Notes: generated from the sequence alone by a model not told the origin. A DNA stretch of 64,000 nt from Candidatus Eremiobacteria bacterium (GCA_963758295.1 CAVWUU010000004.1:608001-672000), one strand, 5' to 3'. Counted from the first letter of the stretch, positions 10,751-39,559 are shown. Translations and numbers: made by a program.

Positions 10751-12247
10751 CTAATAGAGCGCAAGACCGGCGAGTTCAGGGGTATCGCGTGCATCGAGAA
10801 TTCGGACGCGCACGCCGTTGGTCTCGACGGGCTTCTGCAACTGGAGGAGCCGCTTGTAGCCGACGGTCGTTCCGCTCGCGATTTGGCGCCACGTGCTGCC
10901 GTCGCGAGCGTCCACGGCAAAGCGCGCAATGCGCTGGCCGTCGGCGATGCGTTCGCGGAGCTCGATCGTACGAATCATCACGCTGCGCTCGAGCGAAAAT
11001 GTATCGGTCGCTCGAGCGCCGTCGACGGACTCGTGCCGGATCGCGCCGCGAGCGAGATCATTTGCAAACGCATCGCGAATCCACGAATGGAACTGTTGCA
11101 GGCGCGCGATGTCGGCTGCATCGAAGCGGCCGCTGCGATCGGGCGGCACGTCGAGCAGCAGTTGGCAATTTCGGCCGATCGACGCAAAGTAGATACCTTG
11201 AAGCGCACCGAGCGATTTGGGCTGCGCGCGAGGATGCCAAAACCACCCGGGCTCCAAAGGAACGTCGCACTCGGAAGGCATCCAGCGCAGAAGCCGCGTC
11301 TTGGGATTGGTCAGCGTAGCATCGTTTCCGAGCGCGTCGCTCGTCGGATCGACGACGTGCGTCGATTGATCCGCCACCGGCGGTCCGGTAAGCGGAATAA
11401 CGCTCCATTGAGAGAGACGCGCATGGCCTTCTTCGTTCCCGACCCAATTTAAGTCGATCGGAAAGATTACTGCATTGGGCTGTAACGCGTGAACGACGGT
11501 GTACCAAGCGGTGAAGTCGTACGGTTGAACGCGGCCGCTGTCTTTCAACGGGTTCGCCCCATCGAACCACACTTCTTCGACCGGACCGTACTGCGTGAGC
11601 AGTTCGTAGAGTTCGTTGAGGTAGTATGCGTTGTAATCATCGAGATCGAAATGAAAACGGCGAGCCGGCCTGCGATTGTCGCCCGCGGTCAAGGTCGGAA
11701 TTTCACGCGGTTTTTTTGCGCTGCCGTTTGCAAAAACGCCACCGGGCTGCGCTTGGTAAAGGTCGGCCGGCGAAAGATAGAAGCCGACTTTTAACCCGTA
11801 TTTGTGTGCCGAGGCCACGAATGCGCCGACGAGATCTCCTCGACCGCCGCGCCACCGGCTCGACTTCACCGAATGCCGCGTATATCGCGATGGCCATAGC
11901 ACGAACCCGTCGTGATGCTTCGTAACGAGAATGACTTTCTTGAACCCGGCCTCTTTCAACGATCGCGCCCATTGATCCGTATCGAGCGACGACGGGTTAA
12001 AGACGTCGGGATCCTCTTTTCCGGTTCCCCATTCGCGATTTGTGAACGTGTTGGGACCAAAATGAATAAAGGCCGTTAGCTCTTCGTGCTGCCACTCCAG
12101 TTGCCGCGCGTCCGGCGTAATGTGAGCCGCAGTTGTTATGACGGCTTGGGGCGAGCGGTTCGCATTAGGCGCTTGTCCTTCGACAAGCTCAGGATGACGG
12201 GGAAGCGCGGCGAGCAGCAGCAGAGCGACGACGATAAACGGCCGCAC
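10751..12247 (-). CDS. Alpha-L-fucosidase, GH29 (subgroup B-like, alpha-1,3/1,4), secreted
   Basis: Start reassigned to GTG 12247; FIHFGPNTF, KHHDGF, VWFDGA nucleophile motif, WVGNEEG, GWFWHP, F5/8-like tail with TVGYKRL. Confidence 0.92.
   Translation of the reverse strand: MRPFIVVALLLLAALPRHPELVEGQAPNANRSPQAVITTAAHITPDARQLEWQHEELTAFIHFGPNTFTNREWGTGKEDPDVFNPSSLDTDQWARSLKEAGFKKVILVTKHHDGFVLWPSRYTRHSVKSSRWRGGRGDLVGAFVASAHKYGLKVGFYLSPADLYQAQPGGVFANGSAKKPREIPTLTAGDNRRPARRFHFDLDDYNAYYLNELYELLTQYGPVEEVWFDGANPLKDSGRVQPYDFTAWYTVVHALQPNAVIFPIDLNWVGNEEGHARLSQWSVIPLTGPPVADQSTHVVDPTSDALGNDATLTNPKTRLLRWMPSECDVPLEPGWFWHPRAQPKSLGALQGIYFASIGRNCQLLLDVPPDRSGRFDAADIARLQQFHSWIRDAFANDLARGAIRHESVDGARATDTFSLERSVMIRTIELRERIADGQRIARFAVDARDGSTWRQIASGTTVGYKRLLQLQKPVETNGVRVRILDARDTPELAGLALY
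12176..12198. repeat. Solo perfect REP copy inside the GH29 coding sequence
   Basis: TCCTTCGACAAGCTCAGGATGAC, identical to the right arm in array 2; read in frame as RHPELVEG. Confidence 0.9.
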
Positions 12248-12251
12248 GAAG

Positions 12252-14024
12252 TTACTTCCAAGTAACCTTGAACGTCCACGCGTATTCGCCGCTTGCGCGT
12301 GCGGCGGCCGGGACGTCGACGAGAATGTCCTGCCCATAGCGATGCCATTTTAGCGCCGCGCCGTGGTAGCCAAGCAGTTCGATCGTGTCGCGGTCGGCGA
12401 TCGGAATCGGTTGATGAATTTCCAGCGTCGCGAGCGGACGCTCGAGCGAAGTAACGTAAAACGCCTTGTTCTGCGCTACGGTGAAGCGAAGGTTCCCATC
12501 TTGTGACGTGCGCCACCAGTAGTGCGTGCCGTAAATCGCTTCGCCGTTCGTGCGCAACCACCGGCCGATATCGCGCAAACGCGACTGCATGATGTCCGGA
12601 ATCGTGCCGTCGGCCTTCGGACCGATGTCGAGTAAGAAGTTTCCGTTCTTACTAACCATATCCACCAGGAAATGCACCAACTCGGCGCTGGTTTTATAGT
12701 CCTTGGGCTGTTCCGCGGCGTTGTAGCCGTACGAATACCCCATACCGCGACTGGCTTCCCACTTCTTCGCGCGCGTTTCGTCGTACGTCGTGTATTCGGG
12801 CGTGGAAAAATCGAAGACGACGTTCTTATTTTCGTCGTCGCCGCCCGTGACGCGACAGCGGTCGTCGATTGCGACGCCTTCATTGCGCGCGCGAGCTTGA
12901 TTGTAATAATGCGCGAAGAGGCCGGCGTCGTGCCAGTACTCCGAGGGCTTGTCCCATTCGCCGTCACACCAGATGATCGCCGGATGGTACTTGTCGACGA
13001 TTTCGTACATCTGCGGAAGCATATGCTGATCGACGTAATTGGTAATCGGCTTCATACCCGTGTACGGAATCGGTTTGCCGCTATACCACTGTGCGACAGG
13101 CTTGCCCGTATAAGCGGGGTTATACCATTCGTAAAGCGAGTAGTAGAGGCCCGGATGTAAATCTTCCGGATGGTACTTCCGCGCTGCATCGAACAGCGCG
13201 CCGACGAGGTCGCGATGCGGTCCCAAGTCGACGGCGTTCCGGCCGGTCGTCGCGGTTTGAAAGAGCGCAAAGCCTTCGTGATGCTTCGATGTCAGCACGA
13301 AATACCGGGCACCGGCTTCGTGAAACAAATCGACCCATGCTTTGGGATCGAAATGCGATGCGGTGAACTGCGGGATGAAGTCGTCGTATGTCGAGTTCAT
13401 ACCGAACAGTGCGAGCTGGTGCTTGTAATCGACGGAGTCTTTTTCGTGAATGGAATGCCAGTACCACTCCGCGTAATCGCCCACGCGGCTGAACGCAGGC
13501 ACAGAATAAACTCCCCAGTGAATGAAGATGCCGAACTTTGCATCATCGTACCAGTCGGGTGCTTCATGCGTTTTTAGCGACGCGCCGTCGGCGGTGTACG
13601 CCTGCACGCCAAGCGTGAGCGGTACGTGTTTGACGATCGGATTCTTTTGCCCATCGTCCGCAACCACCGTTCCATCGGTTTCCGTCCCGGCTGCAGCGCC
13701 CGAGTCGTTCACGATGCCGATTTCGACGAAGGCACGCTCGCCGGGACCGAGGCGCGTGATTTGCGCCGGAACGACGGTCCGAGCGCCCTTCGCATCGACG
13801 TGCAGGGTTACCGCATGCGCCGGATCGATCCAACCATCGGTATCGTTTTCGTACGTCGCTTCCACGAATTGCACGCGTGCGCCGTTGACGATCCGTTCTT
13901 TCGTCGTCGAACGCGCATCGACGATCGATCCGCGTTCGGCCGCCGCGCCGTTGAGCGGCGCCAGGACCGCCGGCAGCAACAGCGCCGCAAGAAGCGCCGG
14001 TTTTATGGAGTTTTTCGCAGCCAT
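12252..14024 (-). CDS. Alpha-L-fucosidase, GH29 (subgroup A-like), secreted, with an extra N-terminal beta domain
   Basis: WYDDAKFGIFIHWGVYSVP, TSKHHEGF, IIWCDGEW, SKNGNFLLDIGPKADG, NGEAIYGT. Confidence 0.95.
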   Translation of the reverse strand: MAAKNSIKPALLAALLLPAVLAPLNGAAAERGSIVDARSTTKERIVNGARVQFVEATYENDTDGWIDPAHAVTLHVDAKGARTVVPAQITRLGPGERAFVEIGIVNDSGAAAGTETDGTVVADDGQKNPIVKHVPLTLGVQAYTADGASLKTHEAPDWYDDAKFGIFIHWGVYSVPAFSRVGDYAEWYWHSIHEKDSVDYKHQLALFGMNSTYDDFIPQFTASHFDPKAWVDLFHEAGARYFVLTSKHHEGFALFQTATTGRNAVDLGPHRDLVGALFDAARKYHPEDLHPGLYYSLYEWYNPAYTGKPVAQWYSGKPIPYTGMKPITNYVDQHMLPQMYEIVDKYHPAIIWCDGEWDKPSEYWHDAGLFAHYYNQARARNEGVAIDDRCRVTGGDDENKNVVFDFSTPEYTTYDETRAKKWEASRGMGYSYGYNAAEQPKDYKTSAELVHFLVDMVSKNGNFLLDIGPKADGTIPDIMQSRLRDIGRWLRTNGEAIYGTHYWWRTSQDGNLRFTVAQNKAFYVTSLERPLATLEIHQPIPIADRDTIELLGYHGAALKWHRYGQDILVDVPAAARASGEYAWTFKVTWK

Positions 14025-14674
14025 TCTTCGACACCCACGATGTGAATGGTCGCCCAGGAACGCGCCGTCTCGGGATTGCGCTCCGCGACGCCTTGGTAAA
14101 TCATTTCATGTTCGTGCAGCGAACGTTCGAGCGCCGCTTCTTCCGTGAAACCGCGGATGATTCGGGCGCGCGTGGTAGGGGCAACCAGACCGTCGAGGAT
14201 GGAACAAAGCACGGGATTCCCGGAGCCTTCCGCCAGGGTGCGGTGAAAGGCCATGTCTTGATGGATGAATTGCTCGACCGGAAGATCGACGTGCGTTTCG
14301 TTGAGAATTTTTTTCAGCGCGGCGATCTCGGCCTTGCCCATGCGCGTCGCTGCCATCGCCACTGCGGACGGTTCCAAAATGCGGCGCACTTCGAACAGCT
14401 GCAACAGCGTGCTGTCGCGATGGAAGTCGAGAACGAACTTCACCGCCTCGAGCAGCAGCTCGGGTTGTAGGCTCGTAACGTAGGTGCCGTCGCCTTGCCG
14501 CACATCGAGTACGCGAATGAGCGAGAGCGCTCGCACTGCTTCGCGTAGCGAATTGCGCGACAAGCCCAAGCGCTCGGCGAGTTCGGCTTCTTTAGGAAGC
14601 TTGTCCCCCGGTCCGAGTTCGCCCGAGAGGATCATGTCTTTGATCTTCTCGATCGCCTCGTCGGTTAACGCCAT
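14003..14674 (-). CDS. FadR/GntR family transcriptional regulator (probable fucose regulon repressor)
   Basis: GDKLPKEAELAERLGLSRNSLREA wHTH; FCD domain (FEVRRILEP, DMAFH, SGNPVL, EHEMI). Confidence 0.95.
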   Translation of the reverse strand: MALTDEAIEKIKDMILSGELGPGDKLPKEAELAERLGLSRNSLREAVRALSLIRVLDVRQGDGTYVTSLQPELLLEAVKFVLDFHRDSTLLQLFEVRRILEPSAVAMAATRMGKAEIAALKKILNETHVDLPVEQFIHQDMAFHRTLAEGSGNPVLCSILDGLVAPTTRARIIRGFTEEAALERSLHEHEMIYQGVAERNPETARSWATIHIVGVEEWLRKTP

Positions 14675-14707
14675 ACAGCTAGCCTTTCTCGAAGCAAAAC
14701 AGTCCTA

Positions 14708-14718
14708 ACATCGGATTT
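14708..14718. promoter_or_regulatory. Imperfect operator copy upstream of the regulator gene
   Basis: ACATCGGATTT (reverse complement AAATCCGATGT), a variant of CATCCGATG. Confidence 0.6.
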
Positions 14719-14769
14719 ATGGACGAGTACGCCCCTGGCTCGTTCCGCTCTTTCGCCGGACAAGGGCAA

Positions 14770-14784
14770 ATTCATCCGATGAAT
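14770..14784. promoter_or_regulatory. Palindromic operator, probable site of the FadR-type regulator
   Basis: ATTCATC-C-GATGAAT perfect 7-1-7 palindrome abutting a TAACGT -10-like hexamer that ends 8 nt before ATG 14798. Confidence 0.75.
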
Positions 14785-14797: not shown

Positions 14798-16111
14798 ATG
14801 GGTGCAGCGTTCACCGCGGGGCGCACGTTCGACGTCCGCTTCCCGACCTCGGCTCAAGCGCACGGGTCCGACGCCATGAACGTGGACCCCGACTACTCCG
14901 CGTCCTACGTCATCCTCTATACAGATGCCGGCGACGGCCTTCAGGGCCACGGCTTCGCTTTCACGATCGGCCGGGGCAACGAGATCCAGCTCGCAGCCAT
15001 CCGAGCGCTTCTTCCCTTGGTGATTGGTGTATCGGTCGATGACGTTTGCTCCAATATGGGTGCTTTCGCCCGCCGCCTGCACGCTGACAGTCAATTGCGC
15101 TGGCTCGGCCCGGACAAGGGTGTAATGCAGATGGCGATCGCCGCCGTGCTGAACGCGGTGTGGGATCTCGCCGCGAAGCGCGCCGGGAAACCGCTGTGGC
15201 AGCTGCTTGCCGATCTTTCGCCGGCGGAGATCGTCGAACTCGTCGACTTCCGCTATTTGCGCGACGTGCTTACGCCGCAAGAAGCGATCGCTATGCTCGA
15301 ACGTCACGCCGCAAGCCGCTCGGAGCGCATCGCCGCTCTGGAAAAGCGCGGCTTCCCCGCCTACACAACCTCGCCGGGATGGATCGGTTACGACGACACT
15401 CAGCTCGCCGACGCATGCCGTACCGCCGTCGAAGCCGGTTGGGAGCAAATCAAAATCAAAGTCGGCGGCGACTTGGATGCCGATGTACGCCGGTGCGGAA
15501 TCGCGCGCTCGGTGCTCGGACCGCAGCGCCGCCTGATGGCCGACGCAAACCAACGCTGGAGTTGCGGTGAAGCGATAGACGCCTGCGCGAAGTTCGCGCC
15601 GTTCGACCTTTGGTGGATCGAGGAGCCGACACATCCAGACGACGTGCTGGCGCACGCGAAGATTGCCAAGGCAGTCGCGCCGGTGCGAGTAGCGGCGGGC
15701 GAACATCTTCCGAACGCGATTGCGTTCAAGCAGTATTTCGAAGCCGGGGCTTCACGCATCGCTCAAGTTGATGCGTGCCGTTCCGGCGGCGTCAACGACG
15801 TGATCGCGACGCTTCTTCTCGCGGCAAAGTTCGGTATTCCGGTTTGCCCGCACGCGGGCGGTGTTGGATTATGCGAGCTTGCACAACATATTTCCATTTT
15901 CGATTACGTCGTGCTCGGCGGATCGCTCGAGGACCGCATGCTCGAGTTTGTCGATCATCTGCACGAGCATTTCGTCGATCCGGTTCGGATCGACCGCGGA
16001 CGATATGCCATGCCGCATGCGCCCGGATTCAGCTCCGAGATGCGGGCCGAATCCATCGAACGCTACGCCTTCCCCGGCGGCCCGGTGTGGCGTGAAGCGG
16101 TCGCGCCATGA
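14798..16111 (+). CDS. fucD: L-fuconate dehydratase (enolase superfamily, mandelate racemase subgroup)
   Basis: DVRFPTS..GSDAMN.DPDYS, QLRWLGPDKGV, PAYTTSPGWIGY, KIKVG, DANQRW, WIEEPT.PDD, VCPHAGGVGLCE. Confidence 0.93.
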   Translation: MGAAFTAGRTFDVRFPTSAQAHGSDAMNVDPDYSASYVILYTDAGDGLQGHGFAFTIGRGNEIQLAAIRALLPLVIGVSVDDVCSNMGAFARRLHADSQLRWLGPDKGVMQMAIAAVLNAVWDLAAKRAGKPLWQLLADLSPAEIVELVDFRYLRDVLTPQEAIAMLERHAASRSERIAALEKRGFPAYTTSPGWIGYDDTQLADACRTAVEAGWEQIKIKVGGDLDADVRRCGIARSVLGPQRRLMADANQRWSCGEAIDACAKFAPFDLWWIEEPTHPDDVLAHAKIAKAVAPVRVAAGEHLPNAIAFKQYFEAGASRIAQVDACRSGGVNDVIATLLLAAKFGIPVCPHAGGVGLCELAQHISIFDYVVLGGSLEDRMLEFVDHLHEHFVDPVRIDRGRYAMPHAPGFSSEMRAESIERYAFPGGPVWREAVAP

Positions 16112-16854
16112 GTGAATTTGAAGGGTTGCGCGCGATAGTGACCGGTGCCGGTTCGGGCATCGGCCTCGCAACGGCACAACTCCTCGCGCAGCGCGGTGGG
16201 CGCGTAGCCGCCGTCGATCGCGATCCGTCGCCGGCTACGGAACCGCTGCTGGCAGTCGTAGCGGACGTGCGGGATCAGCGATCGCTCGATGCGTGCGTCG
16301 CTCGAGTCGTCGAGCGCTTCGGCGGTCTCGACATCTTGGTCAACAACGCCGGCATCGGCGCGACGGGCACCATCGTCGATAACGACGATGAAGAGTGGCG
16401 CACGGTTTTCGACGTGAACGTCCTGGGCATCGCGCGAATGATGCGAGCTGCGCTCGAACCGCTTCGCCGCTCGGACCATGCAAGCGTCGTGAATACGTGT
16501 TCGATTGCGGCGACGGCCGGTTTACCGAGTCGCGCACTCTATTCGGCTAGTAAAGGCGCCGTGCAGTCGTTGACGCTAGCAATGGCAGCCGATCATCTCG
16601 CCGACGGCATCCGCGTCAATTGCGTAAACCCCGGCACGGCGGACACGCCGTGGGTCGCGCGTCTTCTGGCTAATGCGGGAGATCCTGAAGCGGAACGCCG
16701 CGCGCTCGAAGCACGCCAGCCGATGGGACGGCTTATCTCGCCCCAGGAAGTTGCCGAAGCAATTGCTTATTTAGCGAGTCCGCGCAGCGCTTCAACCACT
16801 GGAACCGTTCTTGCCGTCGACGGGGGAATGCATGGATTGCGCTTGCGAAAGTGA
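16108..16854 (+). CDS. SDR oxidoreductase, probable 2-keto-3-deoxy-L-fuconate dehydrogenase
   Basis: TGAGSGIG, NNAG, YSASKG, PGTADTP, ARQPMGRL; pathway context. Confidence 0.85.
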   Translation: MSEFEGLRAIVTGAGSGIGLATAQLLAQRGGRVAAVDRDPSPATEPLLAVVADVRDQRSLDACVARVVERFGGLDILVNNAGIGATGTIVDNDDEEWRTVFDVNVLGIARMMRAALEPLRRSDHASVVNTCSIAATAGLPSRALYSASKGAVQSLTLAMAADHLADGIRVNCVNPGTADTPWVARLLANAGDPEAERRALEARQPMGRLISPQEVAEAIAYLASPRSASTTGTVLAVDGGMHGLRLRK

Positions 16855-16861
16855 TCGCGCT

Positions 16862-17887
16862 TTGAAAGTTCTGCGCGTCCTTCGCACAATTGTCGCCTCG
16901 GCTCTCATTGCCGTCGCGAGCGCGTGCAGCTCTGCCACGCACGGCGGAGCCGCCGGTCCGAAGGTCGGCGTGGAATTACCGCTGCTGACATCTCCGTTTT
17001 GGCAAGCCTACGAAGCGTATCTGCCGCAATATGCAAGCAAGACCGGAGTCGATCTCGTCGGCCCTTCGAGCGCCGACGGCGACACGAATAAATTCCTGAC
17101 CGACACGCAAAGCTTCATTACCGAAGGCGCAAACGGGCTCGTGCTTTCGCCCACCGACACGGCCGCCGCTTCTTCTACGCTAGCGAAAGCGGCTGAGGCA
17201 AAGATCCCCGTCGTTACGGTAGATGTTGCGCCCGATCGCGGTCCGGCCTTTATGGTGGTTCGTGCCGATAACCGTGCTTATGGAACGCAAGCCTGCCAGT
17301 TTCTCGGCGCGCACGTTCGCAGCGGCGCCGTCGTACAAATCGAAGGCGACCTCACTTCGATCAACGGGCGCGAGCGCACCGAAGCCTTCGCGTCTTGCAT
17401 GCGCGGGCGCTTTCCGTCGCTTCGCGTACTCGCAGTGCCGGCAAACTGGGATGCTTCTAAAGCCGAATCCGGTCTTGAAGCGCTGTACACGGCAAATCCC
17501 GACATCAGAGGCATCTACTTGCAGGCCGGCGGCGTGTATCTGGCGCCGGCGCTTGCGGTGCTGCGGCGACACGACGCGCTCGTACCGGCCGGCGATGCAC
17601 GTCATATAACTATCGTCTCCAACGACGGCATTGCGCAGGAACTCGAGGCGATCCGCCGCGGCGACATCGACGCGACGGTTTCGCAGCCTGCCGATCTGTA
17701 TGCAAAATACGGCCTTTTCTACATTAAAGCCGCCCTCGCGAACCAGCATTTTCAGCCGGGCAAAACCGATCATGGCAGCACCATCGTGCGACTGCCCAAC
17801 GGACTGCTCGAAGACCGTCTGCCTGCGCCGCTGATCACGAAGGGTAACGTCAACGATCCCCGATTCTGGGGCAACGCCAAGAGTTAG
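16862..17887 (+). CDS. Sugar ABC transporter substrate-binding lipoprotein (CUT2/RbsB-like)
   Basis: Start reassigned to TTG 16862; ASAC lipobox; SPFW, IPVVTVD, ADNRAYG, NGRERT, DATVSQP. Confidence 0.92.
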   Translation: MKVLRVLRTIVASALIAVASACSSATHGGAAGPKVGVELPLLTSPFWQAYEAYLPQYASKTGVDLVGPSSADGDTNKFLTDTQSFITEGANGLVLSPTDTAAASSTLAKAAEAKIPVVTVDVAPDRGPAFMVVRADNRAYGTQACQFLGAHVRSGAVVQIEGDLTSINGRERTEAFASCMRGRFPSLRVLAVPANWDASKAESGLEALYTANPDIRGIYLQAGGVYLAPALAVLRRHDALVPAGDARHITIVSNDGIAQELEAIRRGDIDATVSQPADLYAKYGLFYIKAALANQHFQPGKTDHGSTIVRLPNGLLEDRLPAPLITKGNVNDPRFWGNAKS

Positions 17888-17893
17888 CGGGCA

Positions 17894-19336
17894 ATGAGCA
17901 AAGCCGCTGAAGTCGTCGGCGTTGGAAAGCGTTTCGGAAATACCGTTGCGCTCGCCGACGTGTCGCTTACAATCGAACGCGGAAGCATTCACGCGCTCGT
18001 GGGCCGGAACGGCGCGGGCAAATCTACGCTCGTTTCCATTCTCACCGGACTCGTGCAACCGGATCGCGGCTCCGTTTATTTAGAGTCCGCACCTTCTTGC
18101 GTCTACCAGCATTCGAAGATTGTCCCGCACGTAAGCGTCGCGGAAAATATCTTTCTCAATCGTCAGCCGCGTTCGCGGTTCCACGCAATCGATTGGAAAG
18201 TGATGCGGCAGCAAGCGCGCGCGATGCTCATGGATTGGAACGTCGCGGTCCAGCCCGATGCGCCGGGGTCGGCGCTTTCCGTTGAAGAGTGCCAGCTCGT
18301 CGAAATTCTGCGCGCGCTGTGCTGCGGCTCGCGATTTCTCATTTTGGATGAGCCGACGGCGCGACTGGAAGGCACCGCCATCGAGCGGCTTTTCGCGCGT
18401 TTACGCCGGCTGAATGAGTCCGGCGTAACGATGCTCTTCATTTCGCACCATCTGCAAGAGCTTTACGCTTTGTGCGATACCGTAACCGTGTTACGCGACG
18501 GAATGTCCGTGGCGACGCGTCCCACGGCGGAGTTTCCGGCCGAAGCCGCGATCGAAGCGATGACGGGAAGCCCCCTGAGCGTCGCGCAAAGTCCGGCTGC
18601 ACCGATTGCCTCGACGGCGGCACCGGTGCTTACGGTTGAAGCTTTGTGCGGCGACGGCTTCGAAGACGTCACGTTTGAAGTAAGGCCCGGTGAAAGTGTT
18701 GGACTCGCGGGCATCGGCGGCAGCGGCAAAGTCTCGGTCGCAGAAACGATTGCGGGCATACTCGAACCGCGTAGCGGCGCGGTGTGCGTAGGTGGCGCAA
18801 GAATCCAGCCCGGTGTGCGCAAGGCGCTCGAAGCGGGAATCGGTTTCGTTCCGCGCGACCGTCATCGAGAAGGCTTGATCCCGCAGTTGAGCGTTGCGGA
18901 GAACGCGACCATCACGCTGGACGACCGGCTCGGTCCGCTTGGATGGATTATTCCGCGCCGGCGGGATGCCATTGCGCAACGGACGATCGAAGAATTTGCG
19001 ATCGCCGGCAGTGCCGCACAACGCGTCGACACCCTTTCCGGCGGAAATCAACAGAAGGTCGTTTATGCGCGTGCGCTTGCGCGTGGTCCCGCCGTGCTGA
19101 TTGCGATCGAGCCGACGGCGGGCGTTGACGTAGCTTCGAAAACGGCGCTGCACGAGCAGCTTCGAACGATGCTCCAGCGCGGCACCGGTGTCGTGGTTGT
19201 CTCCGACGATCTCGACGATCTTCGTGACTGCGATCGCATTATCGTGATGTTCAACGGCCGGCAAACGGCGGAGCTGTCTCGCGGATGGAGCGACGGCGAT
19301 TTGATCGCGAACATGGAAGGCTTAACGCGTGTCTGA
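17894..19336 (+). CDS. Sugar ABC transporter ATP-binding protein (tandem NBD)
   Basis: GRNGAGKST Walker A, LILDEPT, ISHH, LSGGNQQKV. Confidence 0.95.
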   Translation: MSKAAEVVGVGKRFGNTVALADVSLTIERGSIHALVGRNGAGKSTLVSILTGLVQPDRGSVYLESAPSCVYQHSKIVPHVSVAENIFLNRQPRSRFHAIDWKVMRQQARAMLMDWNVAVQPDAPGSALSVEECQLVEILRALCCGSRFLILDEPTARLEGTAIERLFARLRRLNESGVTMLFISHHLQELYALCDTVTVLRDGMSVATRPTAEFPAEAAIEAMTGSPLSVAQSPAAPIASTAAPVLTVEALCGDGFEDVTFEVRPGESVGLAGIGGSGKVSVAETIAGILEPRSGAVCVGGARIQPGVRKALEAGIGFVPRDRHREGLIPQLSVAENATITLDDRLGPLGWIIPRRRDAIAQRTIEEFAIAGSAAQRVDTLSGGNQQKVVYARALARGPAVLIAIEPTAGVDVASKTALHEQLRTMLQRGTGVVVVSDDLDDLRDCDRIIVMFNGRQTAELSRGWSDGDLIANMEGLTRV

Positions 19337-32200: not shown

Positions 32201-32711
32201 GCCGGACGGCCGCACGGTTTACGTCGTCGATCAAGATGACAACGCCGTGACGGCAATCGACGTAGCTAAAGCTGTGAACGTCGGAACGTTCGCAACGGGC
32301 GCGCGTCCGTTAGGCGTCGTGGTTTCACGCGACGGCTCGAAGCTTTACGTGAGCAACGCGGGAGAAAATACCGTGAGCGTCATCGATGCGCAAGGCGGTA
32401 AATCTCTCGCTGTCATTGCGGTGGGTAAAGTTCCGCAAGGCATGGCGCTCTCCGGCGACGGCTCGTTGCTGTTGGTTGCGAACTCCGGCTCGAACGACGT
32501 AACGCCGATTACTACGGCGACGAATCGTGCCCGCCCCGCAATTCGCGCCGGCAACGGACCGTTCGACGTGGCGTTCGGACCGGATGGTACCACGGCACTC
32601 GTTGCGAACACGGGCGACAACGAATGCGTCCCGATCGACCTCGCACAGGGCCGCGCGCTCACTCCCGTCCCCACCGGCAGCTTCCCCATCGCCCTCGCTC
32701 TCCCGCGCTAA
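29266..32711 (+). CDS. GH92 alpha-mannosidase fused to an Ig-like domain and a YVTN/YncE beta-propeller (single frameshift at ~32075-32078)
   Basis: VDPFVGT, PFGMVQWSPDT, THISGAGC, SGWDIYR, GNEP, PGNDDLGAMSSWY. Adding one C to CCCC restores PDGKQLWVANYADG and joins ORF 32247..32711. Confidence 0.92.
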
Positions 32712-32785
32712 AGTCCCAACCCTCGTGACGGGGTGGCGGAGGGTCTGCGGGATGACAAGCTGGGCGCACGTTGGTAGGAAAGAAT

Positions 32786-32794
32786 CATCCGATG
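32786..32794. promoter_or_regulatory. Operator copy upstream of the TonB-dependent receptor gene
   Basis: CATCCGATG, identical to the core at 14773-14781, ~95 nt before ATG 32890; a partial copy CATCCGA lies at 32861. Confidence 0.62.
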
Positions 32795-32889
32795 TCTTAA
32801 GGTATGGCTATCGAAGAACGCGCATTTCGGCCCTGATTACTCGGTAGATTCGTTGCTAGCCATCCGACCTTCTCGGAAGGAGCCCATCA

Positions 32890-35800
32890 ATGGTTCGAGT
32901 GATTCTACGCCCTCTGCTCGCTATAGCCGTTCTCATTTGCATGCTCTCTCAGAGCATGCCGCCGGCATTTGCCGGAACGGTGGGCACGATCTCCGGAACG
33001 GTCGTGCAAGCGAACACTCATGCCCCTGTTGCGGGCGCCTTGGTAACCGCTACTTCAGCTAGCGGTACACAGCGTGCCCACACCGATTCTCACGGTTTTT
33101 ACTCGATGAACGGTTTGAACCCGGACACCTACACCGTTTCCTTCGAACGCGAAGGCTTCACGCAAGCGTCCGAAGCCGGTGTCACGGTGGTGGCCGATCA
33201 AACCGCACGCGTCGACATTTCGCTGCAAGCCGCCCTCAAGACGATCGCACGGACGACGTCGCGAGCGACGGGTGGCGCCTTTCAGCCGCATCAGACGGCA
33301 GACACGTATACGGTTGGACCGGAGCAAATACAAAACATCCAAGGCAATGCCGCAAATATCAGCGAGAAAAGCTTGTTGACGGCGCTGCCCGGCGTGCAGT
33401 ATAGCTCCGGCGATAATCCGACGATTCGCGGCGGACGTACGAACAACGTCGACTACGAATTCGAAGGCATGAATTACACGGACCCGTATACGCAAAAGAA
33501 TATCAACGGGTTCAATTTCCCATCGTTCGGACTGCAATCGGTGCAAGTCTCACCGGGCAACGAAGACGAATCGTTCGGTAACTCCGGAGTTGGAACGGTT
33601 AACGTCGTCGCCCGGCGCGGCACGTACCCCGGCACGTTCGATGCGGTGCTGGCAACCGGTGGTCCGGGCTTCATGCATAATGCGAGCTTCGGCTACGGCG
33701 TTGCAACGCCTGATCAGCGTTTTTCCGAATATTTGAGTTACACGGCCGAGAACAACGCCCCACGGTACGGCGGCATTTATTGGAAAGCCGACGCCAACGA
33801 CATCGGGGTGAAAGACTATCCGATGGTGCTTACCGACCGCGAATTCCTGAGCAATACGCTCTTTCATTTCGGTCGCGACAACAAATTCGGATTCCAGTTT
33901 CTCTATAACAACGGCTTGCACGTCACCGACGGCGGCTACGGCGATTATCTCGCATCGCAGCTTTGCTATTTCTCGTGCGATCCGAATCAAGTCGGCGTAT
34001 TTGCAAGTGATTCGCCGAACGCCGGCATCGGCGGCATCGGCTACACCGGCTACTTTGACAAGAACGGCGTCGGCCACCCCGGCTTGACGCTTTCGCAAAT
34101 TCAAAATCTGCTCGTCCTGTGGCCCGGACAAACGCAAGTCAATCAGTTTATGAACGGCCGTCCCGAGTATTCGGAAAACGGCACGGACAACGGTACGAAA
34201 GCCCAGCTAACGTACAATCCAAACTCGTCGACGTACTTATTCGCCGGATGGGATACGACCAACGGCATCACGACGGCCGATAGCCCGAACGCCGCGCTCT
34301 ACCGTCTAGTCGGCGGTTACAACGACGAATATCACGCGGGATTGCAGAAGACGTTGAGCCAGAAGAACATGTTTCGCTTCAACGTCGACGCGTCGCACGG
34401 AATTCCGATCAACGAAGGGTACTTCCCGAACGACGAACTCTTCAACATCGCGCCGGTTTTCGAAGGCGTAGGGGAACTCTACGACTTTATCTCCCCGAGC
34501 GATCCCAACTGCCCGATCGGACACGATGCGAGCGGGAACAGCTACTGCGGCCATTTGTACAATGCGCTCGGGCTTAGCCCGTCCTCGCAAACCGGCACGC
34601 TGAAACTCATTCCCGGCGGTGCAGGTACGCGCATCAAAGGCTCGTCGTTCTCGGCCAGCGTCGGCGATTCGTGGACGCCAAACGACAAGCTAAAGATCGA
34701 TGCCGGCGTGCGCGTCGAACATCACGATTACAGCTTGCCGCCCTATGGCCAGCTTCCGGATTGTACGTCGTACTATGTGCCGGTTGCTTATCAAACGCCC
34801 ACACCGGGCACGCTACCCGACGGAGAAACGGGCGAGTTCGTGAACGGCGCCCCGGTCGGGCCCGGCAACTGCCCCAAAGCGGTCTTCCTGCCGCTCACGA
34901 AACAACAAACGTCGCCAACGGTTCCGGAACCTCGCTTCGCGGCTTCGTATCAGCTGGGACTGAACGATGCGTTGCGCTTCTCCTATGGACGCACGGCCCG
35001 CTTTCCCGAGGGCATCACGAGCGACTACGGCCCGCCGCCCACCTTTCGGCGCTCAGTTCTCCGGGCTGCCGGCCTTCTTGAATCCCGGCATGTTCGCCGC
35101 GACCGGCATCTACAACCCGAATACGTACTACAAGAGTACGGATCCAAATGACTATTATGGCCGCCGCGGTATTCCAACGGACTGCGGCTTCGTGAATCAC
35201 TGGGTGCCGTGCCAGTCGTACCAAGAGCAGCTCTATTGGTCGGTGGAAAACGGCGACTTCGGCAACCCGATTGCGCCGCTTTCGCCGGTGACATACAGCA
35301 ACTTCGACGTGTCGTGGTCGCACCAGTTCAAGGGAAACCTCTCGTTAAAGCTTACGGGCTGGACACGACGCGCGTACGACCTTGACATCATCCAGCCGAT
35401 TCCGCAAGAGAGCCTCTTCGGCTCCGTGATCATTGGACCGGACGGCAGCGTTTCGAACTACATCTTGAAGATTCCGACGAACGACGGCATCGAAAATGCC
35501 GACGGATTGGAATTTTTCTTGACGAAGCTCAATCCAATTGGTCTCTCGGGACAAGTCTCGGCAACGTATAACAACGTCCGCCAGAACGTTCCACCGACCG
35601 GCGCGGATGAGTTTCACGGTTTGCTCACGTCGAATACCGCGGGCCAACTCTTCCGGGTCGGCTACGTATCGCCGTTCACTTCGGCGCTTGCACTATCGTA
35701 TAAAACGCGGAACGGCTGGCGCTTGCAAACGCGTTGGGATTACGACATAGGGTATCCGTACGGTGACGGCTTGCTCACGAGCTTCGCGTACGCGGGCAAG

Positions 35801-36334
35801 ACGTACAACGTCCCGCATACGAACGTGACGGGCGGCGGACAAACGCAGTACATCGATCCATCGAATCCCGGTTCGGTCTTCCATCCGAATATTGCGGCAA
35901 CGCTGGGCGTGCCGGAATCGAATCAGGCGGCCGGACAGCTTTCGCACGATAATCTCGTCGCGTCGATGACGCTCGAGAAGACCGTCGGAGCCGGCGCGAT
36001 CGGCATCACGATCAACAACCTCTTCAACGAAGCGTACTCCGGACCGACGTACCCGATCGGCGACTTCGGCGCAGAGATCCAAGGACCGTTCACCGCGTTG
36101 AATTCCGGTTCGTACTATCAGGGCGGCGGATTCAAGTTGAATGGAAACTACCAGCCGGTTGCGACCGGCATCGGTGGGCCGCTGACCGGCTATCAAACGA
36201 ACTGCACGCCGAACCCGGCTGCCGGCATTACCTGCCAGACAACGGGCGGCGGAGTCAACGGCCGCGGCGCGTATATCAACGTTCCGAACGCGATCGGCCG
36301 CTCGTTCTACGTTTACTACACGGTGCACATCTAG
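32890..36334 (+). CDS. TonB-dependent receptor-like outer-membrane protein (single frameshift at ~35044-35046)
   Basis: Signal peptide; carboxypeptidase-regulatory-like N-domain (GTISGTV..TDSHGFY..L.PDTYTV); plug (LPGV..PTIRGG); PEPRFAASY; terminal strand GRSFYVYYTVHI. Removing one T joins the two ORFs into ~1147 aa. Confidence 0.85.
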
Positions 36335-36342
36335 GAGAGCAC

Positions 36343-37536
36343 ATGAAGATTCATCTTCTGCGAACCGCACTTATCGTTACGGTTTCGGCCGCTCTCGCGG
36401 GATGCGGCGGCGTGACCAACGGCAATTCGTATACGCCGACGCAAACGCCCGGCAACACTCTGCAAAGCAGCAAAGTGCAACTTGCCGCCGGCACGGCAAG
36501 ATTGCCTGACGGCACGACGGGACTGAACCTCGTCTCGACGTTCAGACAGTCGAACGGGCTGAGCGCCGCGCTCGTAAATACGCCCTCGGTTACCGGGCCC
36601 GCCGGATTCACCGTGCCGGCGACGTCGCTTGCCGGCAACGGCCAAGGCGGCTCCGGAACCGATGCCGGTACAAATGCCATCACTGCGCTTCTTCCGTCGT
36701 TCTTGCCGGCTCCGGCTACATCGACGACGTTCGGAGCCGTCGGTGGCGATTTCGCGTCGGGATTCGGCAACTTCAACAACACGACGAACGGCAACACCGC
36801 TTTCTATCCGGGACAGGCGAGCGGCCCTTCACCGGCGTGGGGACAACCGTTCTACGTGACGTCCATTCCGTTTTCCGGAGTGTTGCCTTCGGGAACGAGC
36901 AACGTGCTGCCGCAACCGTACATCGTCGGACCGCCGGCGGTGCCGTTCTTCGACGATGGCACGTTCCCGCAAAACTTCGCGGGGTACATGAGCGGCTTTA
37001 CCGCGTTCGCGGCGACGCCGGTAAGCGGCGATTACAAGCTCAGCGAAGCCGTCGCAACGTCGAACACCTCGCAGACTTTCACCTATTCCGCCACGGCAAC
37101 GCTCTCCAACCTTACGCCGCTGCCGGCGCTTCCGGCGCCGTCCTTCACGAAAGATGGAACCGGCGGTGGTACGGCCACGATCACGATCCCGTCGGATCCG
37201 CGCATCGTGGAGACGCTCGTCTATGTCGTTGATATCGCACCGGGACGCAACAACAACTTGTACTTTGCGAGCGCTCCGATCAAGGGTACCGGCACGCAGA
37301 CCTTCACGCTTCCCAATAATCTGGGCGTGTGCGCCGTCCTCGTGCCGGGCTGCAACACTTCGCATCCGGGTGCCTCGATCGCCTCGGGCGATCAGTATCT
37401 CGTGTACGCGGTGAGCTTTGACTACCCGCAGTTCGAAGCCGAACCGCCCGGAAACACGTCGCAAACGCCGACGATTTCCGGTACGGGCGGCCAGGCCGAC
37501 ATCAGCATGTCTCCGGCGCTCTCGGGAGTTTACTAA
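36343..37536 (+). CDS. Hypothetical Pro/Thr/Gly-rich lipoprotein downstream of the receptor
   Basis: LAGC lipobox; AGGAG RBS overlapping the receptor stop; beta-rich composition. Confidence 0.85.
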   Translation: MKIHLLRTALIVTVSAALAGCGGVTNGNSYTPTQTPGNTLQSSKVQLAAGTARLPDGTTGLNLVSTFRQSNGLSAALVNTPSVTGPAGFTVPATSLAGNGQGGSGTDAGTNAITALLPSFLPAPATSTTFGAVGGDFASGFGNFNNTTNGNTAFYPGQASGPSPAWGQPFYVTSIPFSGVLPSGTSNVLPQPYIVGPPAVPFFDDGTFPQNFAGYMSGFTAFAATPVSGDYKLSEAVATSNTSQTFTYSATATLSNLTPLPALPAPSFTKDGTGGGTATITIPSDPRIVETLVYVVDIAPGRNNNLYFASAPIKGTGTQTFTLPNNLGVCAVLVPGCNTSHPGASIASGDQYLVYAVSFDYPQFEAEPPGNTSQTPTISGTGGQADISMSPALSGVY

Positions 37537-37539
37537 CCG

Positions 37540-38847
37540 CTACTCCACTAGCGAAGTAATCCCGCGCTGGTAAAGCGCCTCGCGATTTCCGGCGTTCCGT
37601 TGCAGCACGATCTGCGCGCGAACGCCGGAGTCGACGAGCCGCATGTAGCGCTCCAATAAATCGTCCGATCCCTCGTCATTCGGAATCACGAGCGCGTGCG
37701 GACGTTTCAACACTTGAGGCGGCGTGCGGTCAAACTCCGCAATCAAGGCCGCAAGGCGTTTGCCGAGCGGCTTGAGCCGCCGATCGTTCGTGTACAACCC
37801 CAAGTCATATTCCAGTTTGTTGAAGCCGGTAAAACGCTCGCCGACATCGTGCGAGCACCACCACGTAATGCCGAAAAGATGATCGCAGCTCGCGGCGTTG
37901 CGAACCGACGCTTCCGCCCAATCCGGAATGAGGCTTTCAGGCATCCACTGTTTCGAACATCCGTCTTCTTCTATCCAAATCGTACGGGCGCCGTGCGTCG
38001 AAAACGCCTGAATGTACTGCACCAAGAACTCACTGTAGTGTTTGGCGGCCGTGCTCAACGGGCCGTATTTTTTATAGATCGGTCCGAAGCCGGCCCACGG
38101 ATGCACGCAACTCGCGCTTCCCGCGCGGCTCAACCCCTCGCGCGTAAACGCATGCAGTTCCTTGGATTCATACGGCCATTTATCCACGCCGTTTACGTGA
38201 AATTTTCCCGGCGCTACGGAGTCGCAATGGTCCAATAAGGCGTTCATCCACGCATCGCCTTGCGTGGGCGTATATTTAACGTGCAGCGGTTCCGTAAACC
38301 AATAGACTTCGTTCGAAATGTCGAAGCCTAGGAAGTGCGGGTGATTGCCGATCCGTGTGGCAATAGCGCTGAACAGGCGTTGCTGCGTCTGCCATAGTTT
38401 TCGATCGGTGATGAAATTACGAATGTGGCCGTCTTGATTATCGATTAGCCATGGCGGAACGAAAAGAAATCCACTGAGCTGTCCATCGAGGACGGTAACC
38501 TGAACGTCTAAGCCAAGCCTGCCGGCGTCGTTTATCAGTTGCTCCAAACGATCAACGTGCTCGCTGCTTACCGAGGCTTCGTTCGGCTGAAATTGCGGCC
38601 ACAACAGCTGGATGCGAATGTGGTCCATGCCAAGCGCGGCAATATCGTGCAGATCGCGTCGAATGGCTTCGCGATCCCAATCGCCCCAAACGTACCACCA
38701 GTGCTTCGACGGCACGTAATTCGCGCCGAATCGAACGCGACGCCGGTGCGTTGCCGCTGCTGCGGGCATCGGAAACGCCGTTGCAGCGATGCCGCTCGCG
38801 GCCACTGCAATAAATGCCGCTCGAGAGTGTGCTTCTTCGTTCGCCAT
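37540..38847 (-). CDS. GH5 glycosidase, subfamily GH5_18-like beta-mannosidase
   Basis: FGANYVPSKHWWY.W, LGMDHIR..LLWP.FQPN, DGQLSGF.FVP.W, SNE acid/base, WIEE nucleophile, TWWCSHD, LEYDLGL; Tat-like signal SRAAFI. Confidence 0.8.
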   Translation of the reverse strand: MANEEAHSRAAFIAVAASGIAATAFPMPAAAATHRRRVRFGANYVPSKHWWYVWGDWDREAIRRDLHDIAALGMDHIRIQLLWPQFQPNEASVSSEHVDRLEQLINDAGRLGLDVQVTVLDGQLSGFLFVPPWLIDNQDGHIRNFITDRKLWQTQQRLFSAIATRIGNHPHFLGFDISNEVYWFTEPLHVKYTPTQGDAWMNALLDHCDSVAPGKFHVNGVDKWPYESKELHAFTREGLSRAGSASCVHPWAGFGPIYKKYGPLSTAAKHYSEFLVQYIQAFSTHGARTIWIEEDGCSKQWMPESLIPDWAEASVRNAASCDHLFGITWWCSHDVGERFTGFNKLEYDLGLYTNDRRLKPLGKRLAALIAEFDRTPPQVLKRPHALVIPNDEGSDDLLERYMRLVDSGVRAQIVLQRNAGNREALYQRGITSLVE

Positions 38848-38890
38848 CAAAAGGGTGTTGCGAACGCCATTTCAAAGGCCCTTCTCTACC

Positions 38891-39559
38891 GTGCGAACAG
38901 TGTTGGAAGTCATCGTCGTTAATGCGCGCGAAGCACAAATCGCGCAGCGCGCAGGCGCCGGCCGGCTGGAATTGATTGCCCAACGGGAACGCGGCGGATT
39001 CACGCCGGATGCGCGCACGATCGAAAGCGTCGTTGCTGCGGTTTCTATTCCGGTGAACGTGATGGTTCGAACGCACGATCGGGGCTTTACCTATGACGCC
39101 GGTGATCGAGAGGCAATGGTCCGCGACGCGAAGCTCGCGTCGTCGCTGGGCGCCACTGCCATCGTCTCCGGCGCGCTGCTTCCGGATGGCCGCGTCGATA
39201 CGGATTTTGTTGAGGAACTATGCGACGCCGCAAAACTTCCCGCTACGTTCCACCGAGCGTTTGACGAAGCGCGTAATCCGCGCGTCGCATATGAATCGCT
39301 AGGGCGTGCGCCGATGATAACACGCGTCCTTACCTCGGGCGCGGCGGCAGACGCATGGCAAGGCCGCGCTTTGCTGCGTGAACTTGCTGCGGTGAATCGG
39401 CCCATCGTGCTTGCCGGTGTTGGTATCACCGCTGAGAACGCCGCCGCAATCGTCCGCGATACCGGCGCCGGGGAGATTCACGTTGGATCCGGAGCGCGCG
39501 TCCGAGGTGAGATCGATCCGCGCTCGATCGAACGAATCATCGAAGTCCTCAACTGTTAA
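38891..39559 (+). CDS. cutC: CutC-family (copper homeostasis) TIM-barrel protein
   Basis: Start reassigned to GTG 38891; GAGRLEL, GGFTP, VMVR, TFHRAFD, RVLTSG. Confidence 0.9.
   Translation: MRTVLEVIVVNAREAQIAQRAGAGRLELIAQRERGGFTPDARTIESVVAAVSIPVNVMVRTHDRGFTYDAGDREAMVRDAKLASSLGATAIVSGALLPDGRVDTDFVEELCDAAKLPATFHRAFDEARNPRVAYESLGRAPMITRVLTSGAAADAWQGRALLRELAAVNRPIVLAGVGITAENAAAIVRDTGAGEIHVGSGARVRGEIDPRSIERIIEVLNC

Follow-up and report, generated by a model that had tools for sequence, protein, structure and literature searches.

A probable fucose-regulated scavenging locus for plant-type N-glycans in a Vulcanimicrobiota bacterium

Systems that dismantle plant N-glycans have been described in Xanthomonas and in gut Bacteroides. 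In Xanthomonas campestris, the operon nixD-nixL encodes a TonB-dependent transporter (TBDT) and glycosidases and belongs to a GlcNAc CUT system, and NixK, NixI and NixE are active on plant N-glycan, according to the accessible part of the published account (PMC4173781). For Bacteroides massiliensis, the available part of the preprint describes a pathway whose genes, among them SusC/D pairs and a type-II PNGase F relative, are distributed among several loci, and in which PNGase release is accompanied by the action of GH92, then a GH3 xylosidase and then a GH29 core fucosidase, with a GH20 also taking part (bioRxiv 10.1101/2022.04.07.487459). N-glycan core loci with a GH5_18/GH38 pair are found in Actinomycetota such as C. 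acnes; the accessible part of that source states that GH5_18 requires unsubstituted mannose and gives R41, S88, N139, E140, H215, W217, E259 and W295 as the catalytic glutamates and supporting residues of CaMan5_18 (PMC6160142).

Here we describe a locus within a window, that is, the whole analysed stretch of 64,000 nucleotides, from a bacterium whose relatives point to the Vulcanimicrobiota (Eremiobacterota), as the first-pass annotation had guessed; these soil bacteria have received little study. Pfam and NCBIfam scans of the window located every gene of that annotation and confirmed its inventory of two GH29s, GH3, GH20, GH92, GH5, TonB-dependent receptor (TBDR), lipoprotein, ABC and SSS transporters and fucose catabolism. 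The encoded proteins probably strip and consume the sugar chains of plant-type glycoproteins. We favour, with fair but not high confidence, the reading that this diderm member of the Vulcanimicrobiota uses the locus to scavenge eukaryotic N-glycans under fucose control, with an extension to chains of the plant/algal type that bear core xylose and core fucose. The features are as follows.

10751..12244, minus: GH29-B-type α-1,3/4-fucosidase, signal peptide (Pfam Alpha_L_fucos; mechanical ORF from 12337, database start 12244)
12178..12198, plus: REP-like hairpin core within the GH29-B gene, in frame and directly past the signal peptide (repeat comparison)
12252..14024, minus: GH29-A-type α-L-fucosidase, signal peptide and extra N-terminal domain (Pfam)
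14003..14674, minus: FadR-subfamily GntR repressor (Pfam GntR and FCD)
14706..14720, no strand: weaker putative operator, upstream of the regulator/GH29 operon (score 14.4)
14770..14784, no strand: putative operator before the fucose operon, perfect 15-bp palindrome (score 21.9)
14798..16111, plus: L-fuconate dehydratase, enolase family (PDB 2hne/1yey, E 1.7e-166)
16108..16854, plus: SDR, probable 2-keto-3-deoxy-L-fuconate dehydrogenase, a role suggested by the pathway (Pfam adh_short_C2)
16811..20297, plus: monosaccharide-type ABC transporter with lipoprotein binding protein, two-domain ATPase and permease (Pfam Peripla_BP_4, ABC_tran, BPD_transp_2)
about 20299..20619, plus: RhaM-family mutarotase, overlooked earlier (Pfam rhaM, E 3e-21)
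20520..21554, plus: aldo-keto reductase, probable L-fucose dehydrogenase (Pfam Aldo_ket_red)
21551..22396, plus: amidohydrolase, probable L-fucono-1,5-lactonase (NCBIfam FuconLaconase, E 6e-60; 203 bits, under the cut-off of 400)
22393..24531, plus: Tat-signal GH3, β-xylosidase type
24595..25546, no strand: REP-like repeat array, non-genic (repeat unit also at 7554-8346)
25658..27472, plus: sodium:solute symporter, SSS (profile scan)
27469..29265, plus: GH20 β-N-acetylhexosaminidase (Pfam; PDB 6q63, E 1.5e-133; HTGGDE motif)
29266..32711, plus: GH92 α-mannosidase with C-terminal YVTN β-propeller (Pfam; frameshift near 32055-32091)
32783..32797, no strand: putative operator 93 bases upstream of the receptor start (score 24.0)
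32890..36334, plus: TBDR with carboxypeptidase-regulatory-like domain, plug and barrel (Pfam on the N-terminal part)
36343..37536, plus: lipoprotein of an unnamed family, all-β, two Ig/FnIII-like sandwiches (structure model)
37540..38847, minus: GH5_18-related exo-β-mannosidase, Tat-like leader (PDB ScGH5_18, E 2.5e-78, then BlGH5_18, BlMan5B, CaMan5_18)
38900..39559, plus: CutC-family gene, divergent from the GH5 gene (Pfam CutC)
61733..63569, plus: PNGase A/H+-type amidase, outside the locus (Pfam PNGaseA, E 1.5e-58; PDB 9vla PNGase Bb, E 1.4e-58)

The predicted use of N-glycans is well supported by three features, namely a GH5_18-type active site, the conserved order GH20-GH92-GH5 and a glycosylasparaginase-like gene in the operon of a relative. 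The GH5 scores 183-267 bits against ScGH5_18, BlGH5_18, BlMan5B and CaMan5_18 versus 63 for the next GH5, and the nine best of ten PDB matches are GH5_18 or like-scoring enzymes. All eight GH5_18 active-site residues checked are kept (R78, S125, N179, E180, H249, W251, E293 and W329), paired with those of CaMan5_18 by motif and spacing and not by direct alignment, in keeping with the earlier suggestion of a GH5_18-like enzyme. Among 80 loci fetched around GH5 homologues, the two non-actinobacterial ones, L001 and L002, both carry GH20, GH92 and GH5 genes consecutively, with GH20 orthologues at 68% and 74% identity, respectively. The TBDR-lipoprotein pair lies between GH92 and GH5 in neither relative, both being short contigs. 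At the head of the L001 GH20-GH92-GH5 operon lies an Asparaginase_2 (glycosylasparaginase-type) gene, which points to GlcNAc-Asn substrates.

The GH5 sits on a long branch away from classical GH38-linked proteins (35-38% identity) and, in an unrooted tree built quickly and with no outgroup from 67 of some 200 sequences, on a separate branch beside exported actinobacterial proteins. The loci of its nearest actinobacterial relatives (L003-L012) contain no match to the other genes of this locus or to GH38. Such a branch might have changed its specificity, so that the locus would degrade a microbial polysaccharide or glycoconjugate of β-Man, GlcNAc, Fuc and Xyl; GimA and GimB, which lie near BlGH5_18 in a published tree yet cut bacterial polysaccharide, provide a precedent, and the exported actinobacterial relatives occur without these partners. 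We regard this as very improbable, as the -1 subsite residues of the GH5 are conserved, the all-exo enzyme set fits N-glycan linkages and the L001 operon includes the Asparaginase_2 gene.

The best PDB match of the GH92 is 6f8z (BT3130, described as an α-1,3 enzyme), at 330 bits, with other entries at 320 and 302, and in an alignment to 2wzs the α-1,2 Trp/His/Glu motif appears to be absent; α-1,3-mannosidases of GH92 that tolerate core xylose lack this motif and have pockets that accommodate the xylose. Its one-base frameshift falls past the catalytic domains, and the orthologues are single ORFs of 1161 (L001) and 1159 (L002) amino acids; this frameshift and that in the receptor are probably assembly errors. 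Apparent export signals had been assigned to all the glycosidases. By eye or regex they are clear for the GH3 (RREF), both GH29s and two lipoproteins, whereas those of GH20 and GH92 are short and atypical, with ordinary signal peptides in the L001 orthologues, and the motif of the GH5 is Tat-like with a single arginine. The same variant is seen in 28 of the 73 proteins of the GH5 clade, 56 of which have Tat-like leaders.

As had been proposed, the GH3 is of the β-xylosidase type: its seven best PDB matches are all β-xylosidases, and its best NCBIfam model is xylosidase_Xyl3A, at 805 bits against a cut-off of 1250. β-1,2- and β-1,4-specificity cannot be told apart from sequence; NixI and B035DRAFT_00995, both plant-N-glycan β-1,2-xylosidases, share only 33% identity in the published material available. 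The best plasmid-borne relative examined sits amid xylose-use genes. The enzyme belongs to a clade of 11 members with 99% support, much smaller than the GH5 clade of about 73, so that xylose removal looks accessory. The closest solved relatives of the 10751..12244 enzyme are GH29-B enzymes (4zrx, 6org/6orf (SpGH29) and 3mo4/3ues, "alpha-1,3/4-fucosidase"; E 1e-109 to 1e-82), in line with the α-1,3/1,4-fucose suggested as the GH29 target, and its closest homologues carry the name Vulcanimicrobiaceae. For the second GH29 the best PDB entries are 1hl8/2zwy together with 7pls, the human tissue fucosidase (E about 1e-72), and it has relatives at 48-49% identity in two Streptomyces loci, L026 and L080. 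As a proxy for co-location we used an exactly equal base count of the longest contig, for which chance alone would give about 0.4 matches in each comparison. By this measure, five of the ten other GH3-clade members match the contig of a GH5 or GH29-B homologue (9,696, 11,276, 11,560, 20,171 and 2,466,984 bases), versus 1 of 109 outside the clade, and three GH29-B homologues agree in the same way with GH5 contigs, every one of them long. These matches suggest that GH3 and GH29-B orthologues co-occur with GH5.

Regulation appears to be led by fucose. We newly recognise the motif CATC-N-GATG as a predicted FadR-type operator; in Nonomuraea it precedes the orthologous regulator, in Arthrobacter the genes for the ABC transporter and fuconate dehydratase, and it occurs twice in the SSS/asparaginase divergent promoter heading the L001 GH20-GH92-GH5 operon. 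A matrix was built from six sites outside the window, although the core had first been spotted in the window, so that the test is not fully blind. The site before the receptor ranks first in the window, also with the four actinobacterial sites only, and the palindrome before the fucose operon ranks second; none of 100 null sequences attains the score of the former or a score of 21. A score of at least 14 occurs somewhere in 28 of 100 null sequences, and the site before the regulator rests on its position. Standing ahead of the fucose operon as well as of the receptor, the predicted operator links the latter to the fucose regulon: the TBDR shares it with the fucose/GH3 and GH29 operons, and not with the GH20-GH92 or GH5 genes, as the matrix scan finds none before SSS-GH20-GH92 or before GH5 in the window.

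In an alternative reading two modules are simply neighbours, one an operon for N-glycan cores in general (GH20-GH92-GH5), the other an island of actinobacterial type for scavenging fucose and xylose. A dedicated plant-N-glycan pathway would then be absent; GH3 and the GH29s would attack fragments of cell walls, and the TBDR would take in any fucosylated oligosaccharide. The halves are split by the 950-bp REP-like array between GH3 and SSS, the FadR-ABC-fuconate cluster is found without mannosidases in Nonomuraea and Arthrobacter, the GH5 clade exceeds those of GH3 and GH29-B in size, and the window's GH20-GH92 and GH5 genes lack an operator. However, the L001 GH20-GH92-GH5 operon is headed by the same operator, the contig proxy places GH3 with GH5 on contigs of 9.7-20 kb, and the Pfam scan finds no xylanase, GH31 or GH74 in the locus; we consider two independent modules unlikely. 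A REP-like hairpin such as that inside the GH29-B gene is missing from the N-termini of the 22 closest GH29-B homologues listed.

The plant target named in the first-pass annotation is plausible but not exclusive, as invertebrate glycans fit too. Certain molluscs and helminths have core xylose, and glycolipids of the mollu series contain Fuc, GlcNAc, α-1,3-Man, Xyl and β-Man. Paucimannose N-glycans of insects, nematodes or molluscs, or a similar glycolipid, could be the substrate, with one GH29-A and one GH29-B removing both core fucoses, and the β-1,3-galactosidase needed for plant Lewis-a antennae is missing from the locus. Insect N-glycans are, however, not described as xylosylated in the literature found, and reports of the phylum come from mosses and bare soils; an invertebrate target seems to us quite unlikely. 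The mechanism would be common to this and the plant-type reading, the source alone differing.

The nearest Atlas cluster of the TBDR is from Vulcanimicrobiota (score 0.99). A probable one-base frameshift near 35040, called from a frame switch in the window sequence, would leave the receptor dead in this strain if real. The lipoprotein has no Pfam or NCBIfam match and 256 relatives at 50% clustering; its model (pLDDT 90) predicts 18 strands and one four-residue helix, with weak fold matches (best Z 6.8). SusD is mainly helical, and judged by this confident all-β model the lipoprotein is not SusD-like. The description "PUL-like" holds only loosely, given this lipoprotein and the absence of the receptor pair from that position in both relatives. 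Both inner-membrane transporters are present, but the ABC system is of a monosaccharide type: PDB matches of its binding protein are monosaccharide-binding proteins, and ribose/allose-type models fall under cut-off. The SSS is not orthologous to that of L001 (22%).

The locus cannot be called complete, since Pfam and NCBIfam scans find no GH38/GH125, β-galactosidase, endoglycosidase or PNGase within it. Glycans or glycopeptides would be released by functions outside it, either by the PNGase A/H+-type amidase 22 kb away, a candidate releasing enzyme with a probable frameshift near 63360 and an upstream motif at chance level (11.4), or by proteolysis and glycosylasparaginase as in L001. Fucosylated oligosaccharides may then cross the outer membrane via the TBDR and lipoprotein, whose co-regulation is predicted from the operator. 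In the periplasm, exported exo-enzymes would remove GlcNAc (GH20), α-Man (GH92), β-Xyl (GH3), Fuc (two GH29s) and the core β-Man (GH5), with families assigned here and linkages and order taken from characterised systems; α-1,6-mannose would have to be removed either by this GH92 or by an enzyme encoded elsewhere. Free L-fucose may enter through the ABC transporter and another sugar through the SSS, and fucose would be oxidised through fuconolactone and fuconate by the enzymes encoded here, a pathway intermediate presumably relieving FadR repression. CutC, previously counted as part of the system, is probably a bystander, with no match in the 80 GH5 loci and no operator by the gene.

More tentatively, and with considerable doubt, the Vulcanimicrobiota may have built their own periplasmic N-glycan pathway, which relies on an exported GH5_18 sub-branch and on a single propeller-bearing GH92 that clears the two mannose arms even when the core is xylosylated. 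In it, a TBDR specific to the phylum and an FnIII-type lipoprotein would replace SusC/D, and an actinobacterial-type fucose repressor would preside over all. If so, this phylum, noted until now for phototrophy and the use of trace gases, would be one that specialises in consuming the glycoproteins of mosses, plants and algae, and the unnamed receptor-lipoprotein family would gain its first substrate.

The fucose genes most resemble the oxidative L-fucose clusters of Nonomuraea (L081) and Arthrobacter (L083), sharing FadR, the monosaccharide ABC transporter, aldo-keto reductase, dehydratase, SDR and operator, and with L083 also the mutarotase and lactonase; a fumarylacetoacetate-hydrolase-family gene of these clusters is missing from the window locus. 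The regulator's closest matches in a plasmid collection are all actinobacterial (best Nonomuraea, 63%), the SDR is 73% identical to that of the Nonomuraea fucose cluster, and the aldo-keto reductase is 44-45% identical to genes of the actinobacterial clusters L081 and L083. Higgins is said to have described GH5_18/GH38 N-glycan core loci of Bifidobacterium and Streptomyces in 2021. In Streptomyces, a homologous FadR-fucose ABC cluster lies next to the GH5 locus in L026, L068, L072 and L080, two of which (L026 and L080) also contain GH29-A. A GH5_18-type β-mannosidase is common to these systems, that of C. acnes included, as far as its description extends. The enzymes of those systems work in the cytoplasm, have GH38 as a partner (in 57 of the 78 actinobacterial loci) and are served by oligosaccharide ABC importers under LacI, whereas the GH5 here has a Tat-like leader, GH92 and GH20 partners and an outer membrane in front; GH38 is absent from the window locus, L001 and L002. 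The SusC-like TBDR with helical SusD lipoprotein that marks Bacteroidota PULs is, judging from the model, not found here. With B. massiliensis the locus shares GH92, GH3, GH29, GH20 and possible PNGase release, but here the glycosidase genes lie in a single locus, the candidate PNGase belongs to the PNGase A/H+ family and the lipoprotein does not resemble SusD. CUT gene content (a TBDR with glycosidases, inner-membrane transport and a regulator) is present, and as in nix the receptor lies beside exported fucosidase, hexosaminidase, α- and β-mannosidases and GH3. Occurrence outside Bacteroidetes is no novelty, given nix, and in the accessible accounts the same enzyme families work on plant N-glycans in both species. 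The parts do differ from nix, as claimed: to the extent covered there, nix is a GlcNAc/NagR regulon, whereas here a FadR operator is shared with fucose catabolism; the second α-mannosidase, β-galactosidase and GH18 of nix have no counterpart among the ORFs scanned with Pfam, which include one GH92; and the lipoprotein, the ABC and SSS transporters and a second GH29 are additional. The core enzyme of nix, NixH, is a GH2, whereas that of this locus is GH5_18-related. Xanthomonas and gut Bacteroides are known to do the same job, which is probably done here with other, partly borrowed parts, and what is apparently new, relative to the Xanthomonas nix/CUT kind, is a putatively Tat-exported GH5_18 branch together with predicted fucose-led regulation.

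The locus at 10751-39559 is real, and the gene set that the first-pass annotation had claimed there, as a PUL-like system for foraging plant-type N-glycans and fucose, is present in the ORF listing and family scans. The minus strand carries FadR-GH29A-GH29B, and divergent from these the plus strand encodes a fuconate dehydratase, a short-chain dehydrogenase-type protein, an ABC system (three genes), a RhaM mutarotase, an aldo-keto reductase, a lactonase and GH3. Downstream of GH3 lies a 950-bp repeat array, followed by a sodium:solute symporter (SSS), GH20 and GH92 and, after a 180-base gap, a TonB-dependent receptor (TBDR) and a lipoprotein. GH5 is located on the opposite strand, convergent with the TBDR-lipoprotein pair. 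CutC (38900-39559), divergent from GH5 and about 50 bases away, was rejected as a locus member, as it was matched in 0 of the 80 loci kept from 594 and a glycan role lacks support. The GC content of the window is even at about 60%. The guess that the DNA derives from Eremiobacterota has held up: the named near homologues of GH5, GH3 and GH29-B belong to Vulcanimicrobiaceae, Baltobacteraceae or Eremiobacteraeota, and most of the Atlas clusters nearest to the TBDR and to the lipoprotein come from Vulcanimicrobiota, a phylum whose cultured member possesses an outer membrane (PMC9758169).

Frame changes occur in four window genes, coding for GH92, the TBDR, an SNF2 helicase and a PNGase; a number that, within 64 kb, suggests indel errors of long-read sequencing. 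The break in GH92 is corroborated by its orthologue, a single full-length ORF in two relatives. Features outside the locus include:

44916-47898, SNF2 helicase gene, split by a frameshift at about 45400
61733-63569, exported-looking PNGase of the A/H+ type (PDB PNGase Bb, E 1.4e-58), with a probable frameshift near its end
63825-63902, tRNA-Pro(GGG) gene

The tRNA was the sole Rfam hit in the window. Arrays of a REP-like unit are found at 7554-8346, 9727-9747 and 24595-25546 (21 matches, 0 by chance), with periods of about 160 and 96-175 and a 27-base sub-repeat, and a transposase was not seen among the window ORFs scanned. ORFs 24598-25110 and 7730-8128 are translated repeats and were rejected as genes. 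A REP-like hairpin (12178-12198) lies in frame within GH29-B, directly past its signal sequence, where it inserts a few residues that were not seen in close homologues. ORFs 3624-5321, 9679-10728 and 41693-42568 have no Pfam or NCBIfam match; by eye, the first has the look of an outer-membrane beta-strand protein.

The GH5 enzyme appears to be of the subfamily-18 kind, as had been proposed: in the PDB it scores highest with ScGH5_18 (E 2.5e-78), 9y4v, BlGH5_18, BlMan5B and CaMan5_18, and it has counterparts for eight residues described in the active site of CaMan5_18 (PMC6160142). In a quickly built tree, unrooted and with 67 sequences (every third homologue and 26 of the 80 loci), it branches with secreted actinobacterial proteins and is distant from the classical GH38-linked Streptomyces proteins. 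Among 73 proteins of the GH5 clade, a regex search gave 28 twin-arginine and 28 single-arginine Tat-like motifs and none in 17; the window GH5 has the single-arginine form, which makes its export likely but not certain. The actinobacterial GH5s nearest its clade (L003-L012) are encoded without GH38 or other matches to the window locus. GimA and GimB, close to GH5_18 in a published tree, cleave a bacterial polysaccharide (PMC12691653), and the possibility that this GH5 branch acts likewise counts against N-glycan foraging, which nevertheless very probably is the role of the locus.

The remaining glycosidases bear on the type of glycan. GH3 does not appear to be a plain beta-glucosidase and is, by its PDB and NCBIfam matches, of the beta-xylosidase type, for which a beta-1,2 specificity is unreadable from sequence. 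Of the two GH29 enzymes, one falls among alpha-1,3/4-fucosidases, the second among the broad GH29-A enzymes (subfamily meaning as in PMC11189522). Invertebrate glycans would also fit as the target (PMC10154615), and the two fucosidases suit them; a putative extension of N-glycan foraging to plant-type chains is the likely reading. BT3130 is, by a narrow margin, the top-scoring match of GH92. The claimed completeness of the pathway did not stand, as family scans found no GH38/GH125, beta-galactosidase or GH18/GH85 in the locus; Pfam and NCBIfam scans gave no FAH-family hydrolase there. Since GH5_18 requires a bare mannose (PMC6160142), the two arms must be removed either by GH92 or by the product of another gene. 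By family scans and PDB matches the ABC system is of the monosaccharide type, so that an oligosaccharide importer was rejected, and this fits periplasmic trimming. An enzyme of the PNGase A/H+ type releases core alpha-1,3-fucosylated glycans (PMC4231336); the PNGase in the window lies 22 kb from the locus and nothing links the two. A predicted sedolisin-like protease with a pro-kumamolisin domain and Thr/Pro linker (49011-51473) could supply glycopeptides.

Clustering at 50% gives 256 relatives of the lipoprotein. Its model (105 sequences, pLDDT 90) is almost all beta, on which ground a SusD reading was rejected. The Foldseek and VIA-align matches, FnIII/Ig-like over two domains, are weak (E no better than 2e-4; highest Z 6.8, below 8 in every case) and assign no function.

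The genome scan kept 80 of 594 loci, 78 of them actinobacterial and two from close relatives (L001, from Vulcanimicrobiota, and L002), so synteny within the phylum is thinly sampled. In both relatives GH20, GH92 and GH5 are consecutive and co-oriented with 55-74% identity, and the TBDR is absent between the genes of this run. In L001 GH20 is preceded by an Asparaginase_2 gene; the divergent SSS of that locus was rejected as an orthologue of the window SSS at 22% identity. GH38 is present in 57/78 actinobacterial loci. A homologous FadR-fucose cluster adjoins four of the 78 (L026, L068, L072 and L080, all Streptomyces), hence the combination of GH5_18 with fucose catabolism is not unique to the window's lineage. 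As an indirect linkage proxy, identical longest-contig sizes were sought among the 120 best matches for each of GH5, GH3 and GH29-B, which on long contigs indicates a shared replicon only. Non-self matches numbered four for GH5/GH3 and three each for GH5/GH29-B and GH3/GH29-B, with about 0.4-0.6 expected by chance; a 3,147-base contig match (P0237/P0246), whose sources differ, was taken as the chance one. The GH3 matches sit in an 11-member Tat-signal clade (32 rows), in 5/10 other members versus 1/109 outside. The GH3 (11) and GH29-B (about 22) clades are smaller than that of GH5 (about 73), by which the core operon appears to be general and the part for xylose and fucose an accessory to it.

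A palindrome with the core CATC-N-GATG, a putative FadR-type operator, lies upstream of both the fucose operon (14770) and the TBDR (32783). It also occurs in Nonomuraea, immediately upstream of the orthologous regulator, in Arthrobacter ahead of the ABC and dehydratase genes, and twice in the promoter region driving the asparaginase-GH20-GH92-GH5 operon of L001. With a matrix built from six non-window sites, the top score in the window fell to 32783 and the next to 14770, and a score of 21 was reached in 0 of 100 order-2 Markov sequences; the positions of the outside sites are independent, but the test is not entirely blind, as it was in the window that the core first came to notice. Weaker putative operators were found at 21542 (17.1) and 14706 (14.4), and the matrix scan of the window gave none before SSS, GH5 or CutC. 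The PNGase was rejected as a regulon member, its upstream score of 11.4 being at chance level (85/100 null sequences). The site at 21542-21556 overlaps the lactonase start codon, as one L001 site does that of the SSS. Sigma-70 promoter scans gave nothing at either operator. The motif is unlike the FadR consensus in PMC4494728, and the matches listed in a literature search were unrelated papers. The FadR-fucose cluster promoters of the four Streptomyces loci have a different palindrome of the GTGGTC-GACCAC type, and a score of 18.0 at 3007 of L080, just before a GH29-A gene, may be chance.

Taken together, we favour, with moderate confidence, a fucose-regulated locus by which a diderm member of Vulcanimicrobiota scavenges eukaryotic N-glycans, extended to core-xylosylated and core-fucosylated chains of the plant or algal type. 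This offers a concrete carbon-source hypothesis for a widespread, barely cultured soil phylum and an enrichment recipe based on fucose or plant glycoprotein; the putative operator is testable and connects a receptor and lipoprotein of unnamed families to a sugar. The locus would also take GH5_18 beyond the cytoplasmic enzymes of actinobacteria, adding a branch that appears to be exported, and provide candidates for plant-glycan remodelling, for which few enzymes have been described (bioRxiv 2022.04.07.487459). Among the papers listed in literature searches, judged by titles and abstract starts and with subscription papers, supplements and CAZy outside the scope, none describes such a locus in the phylum. 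Xanthomonas and Bacteroides were already known to forage glycans in this manner, which lessens the surprise. In its working the window locus resembles both the nix CUT system of Xanthomonas (PMC4173781) and the pathway of B. massiliensis (bioRxiv 2022.04.07.487459; reviewed in PMC10154615) but is a member of neither, nor does it belong to the cytoplasmic GH5_18/GH38 loci.
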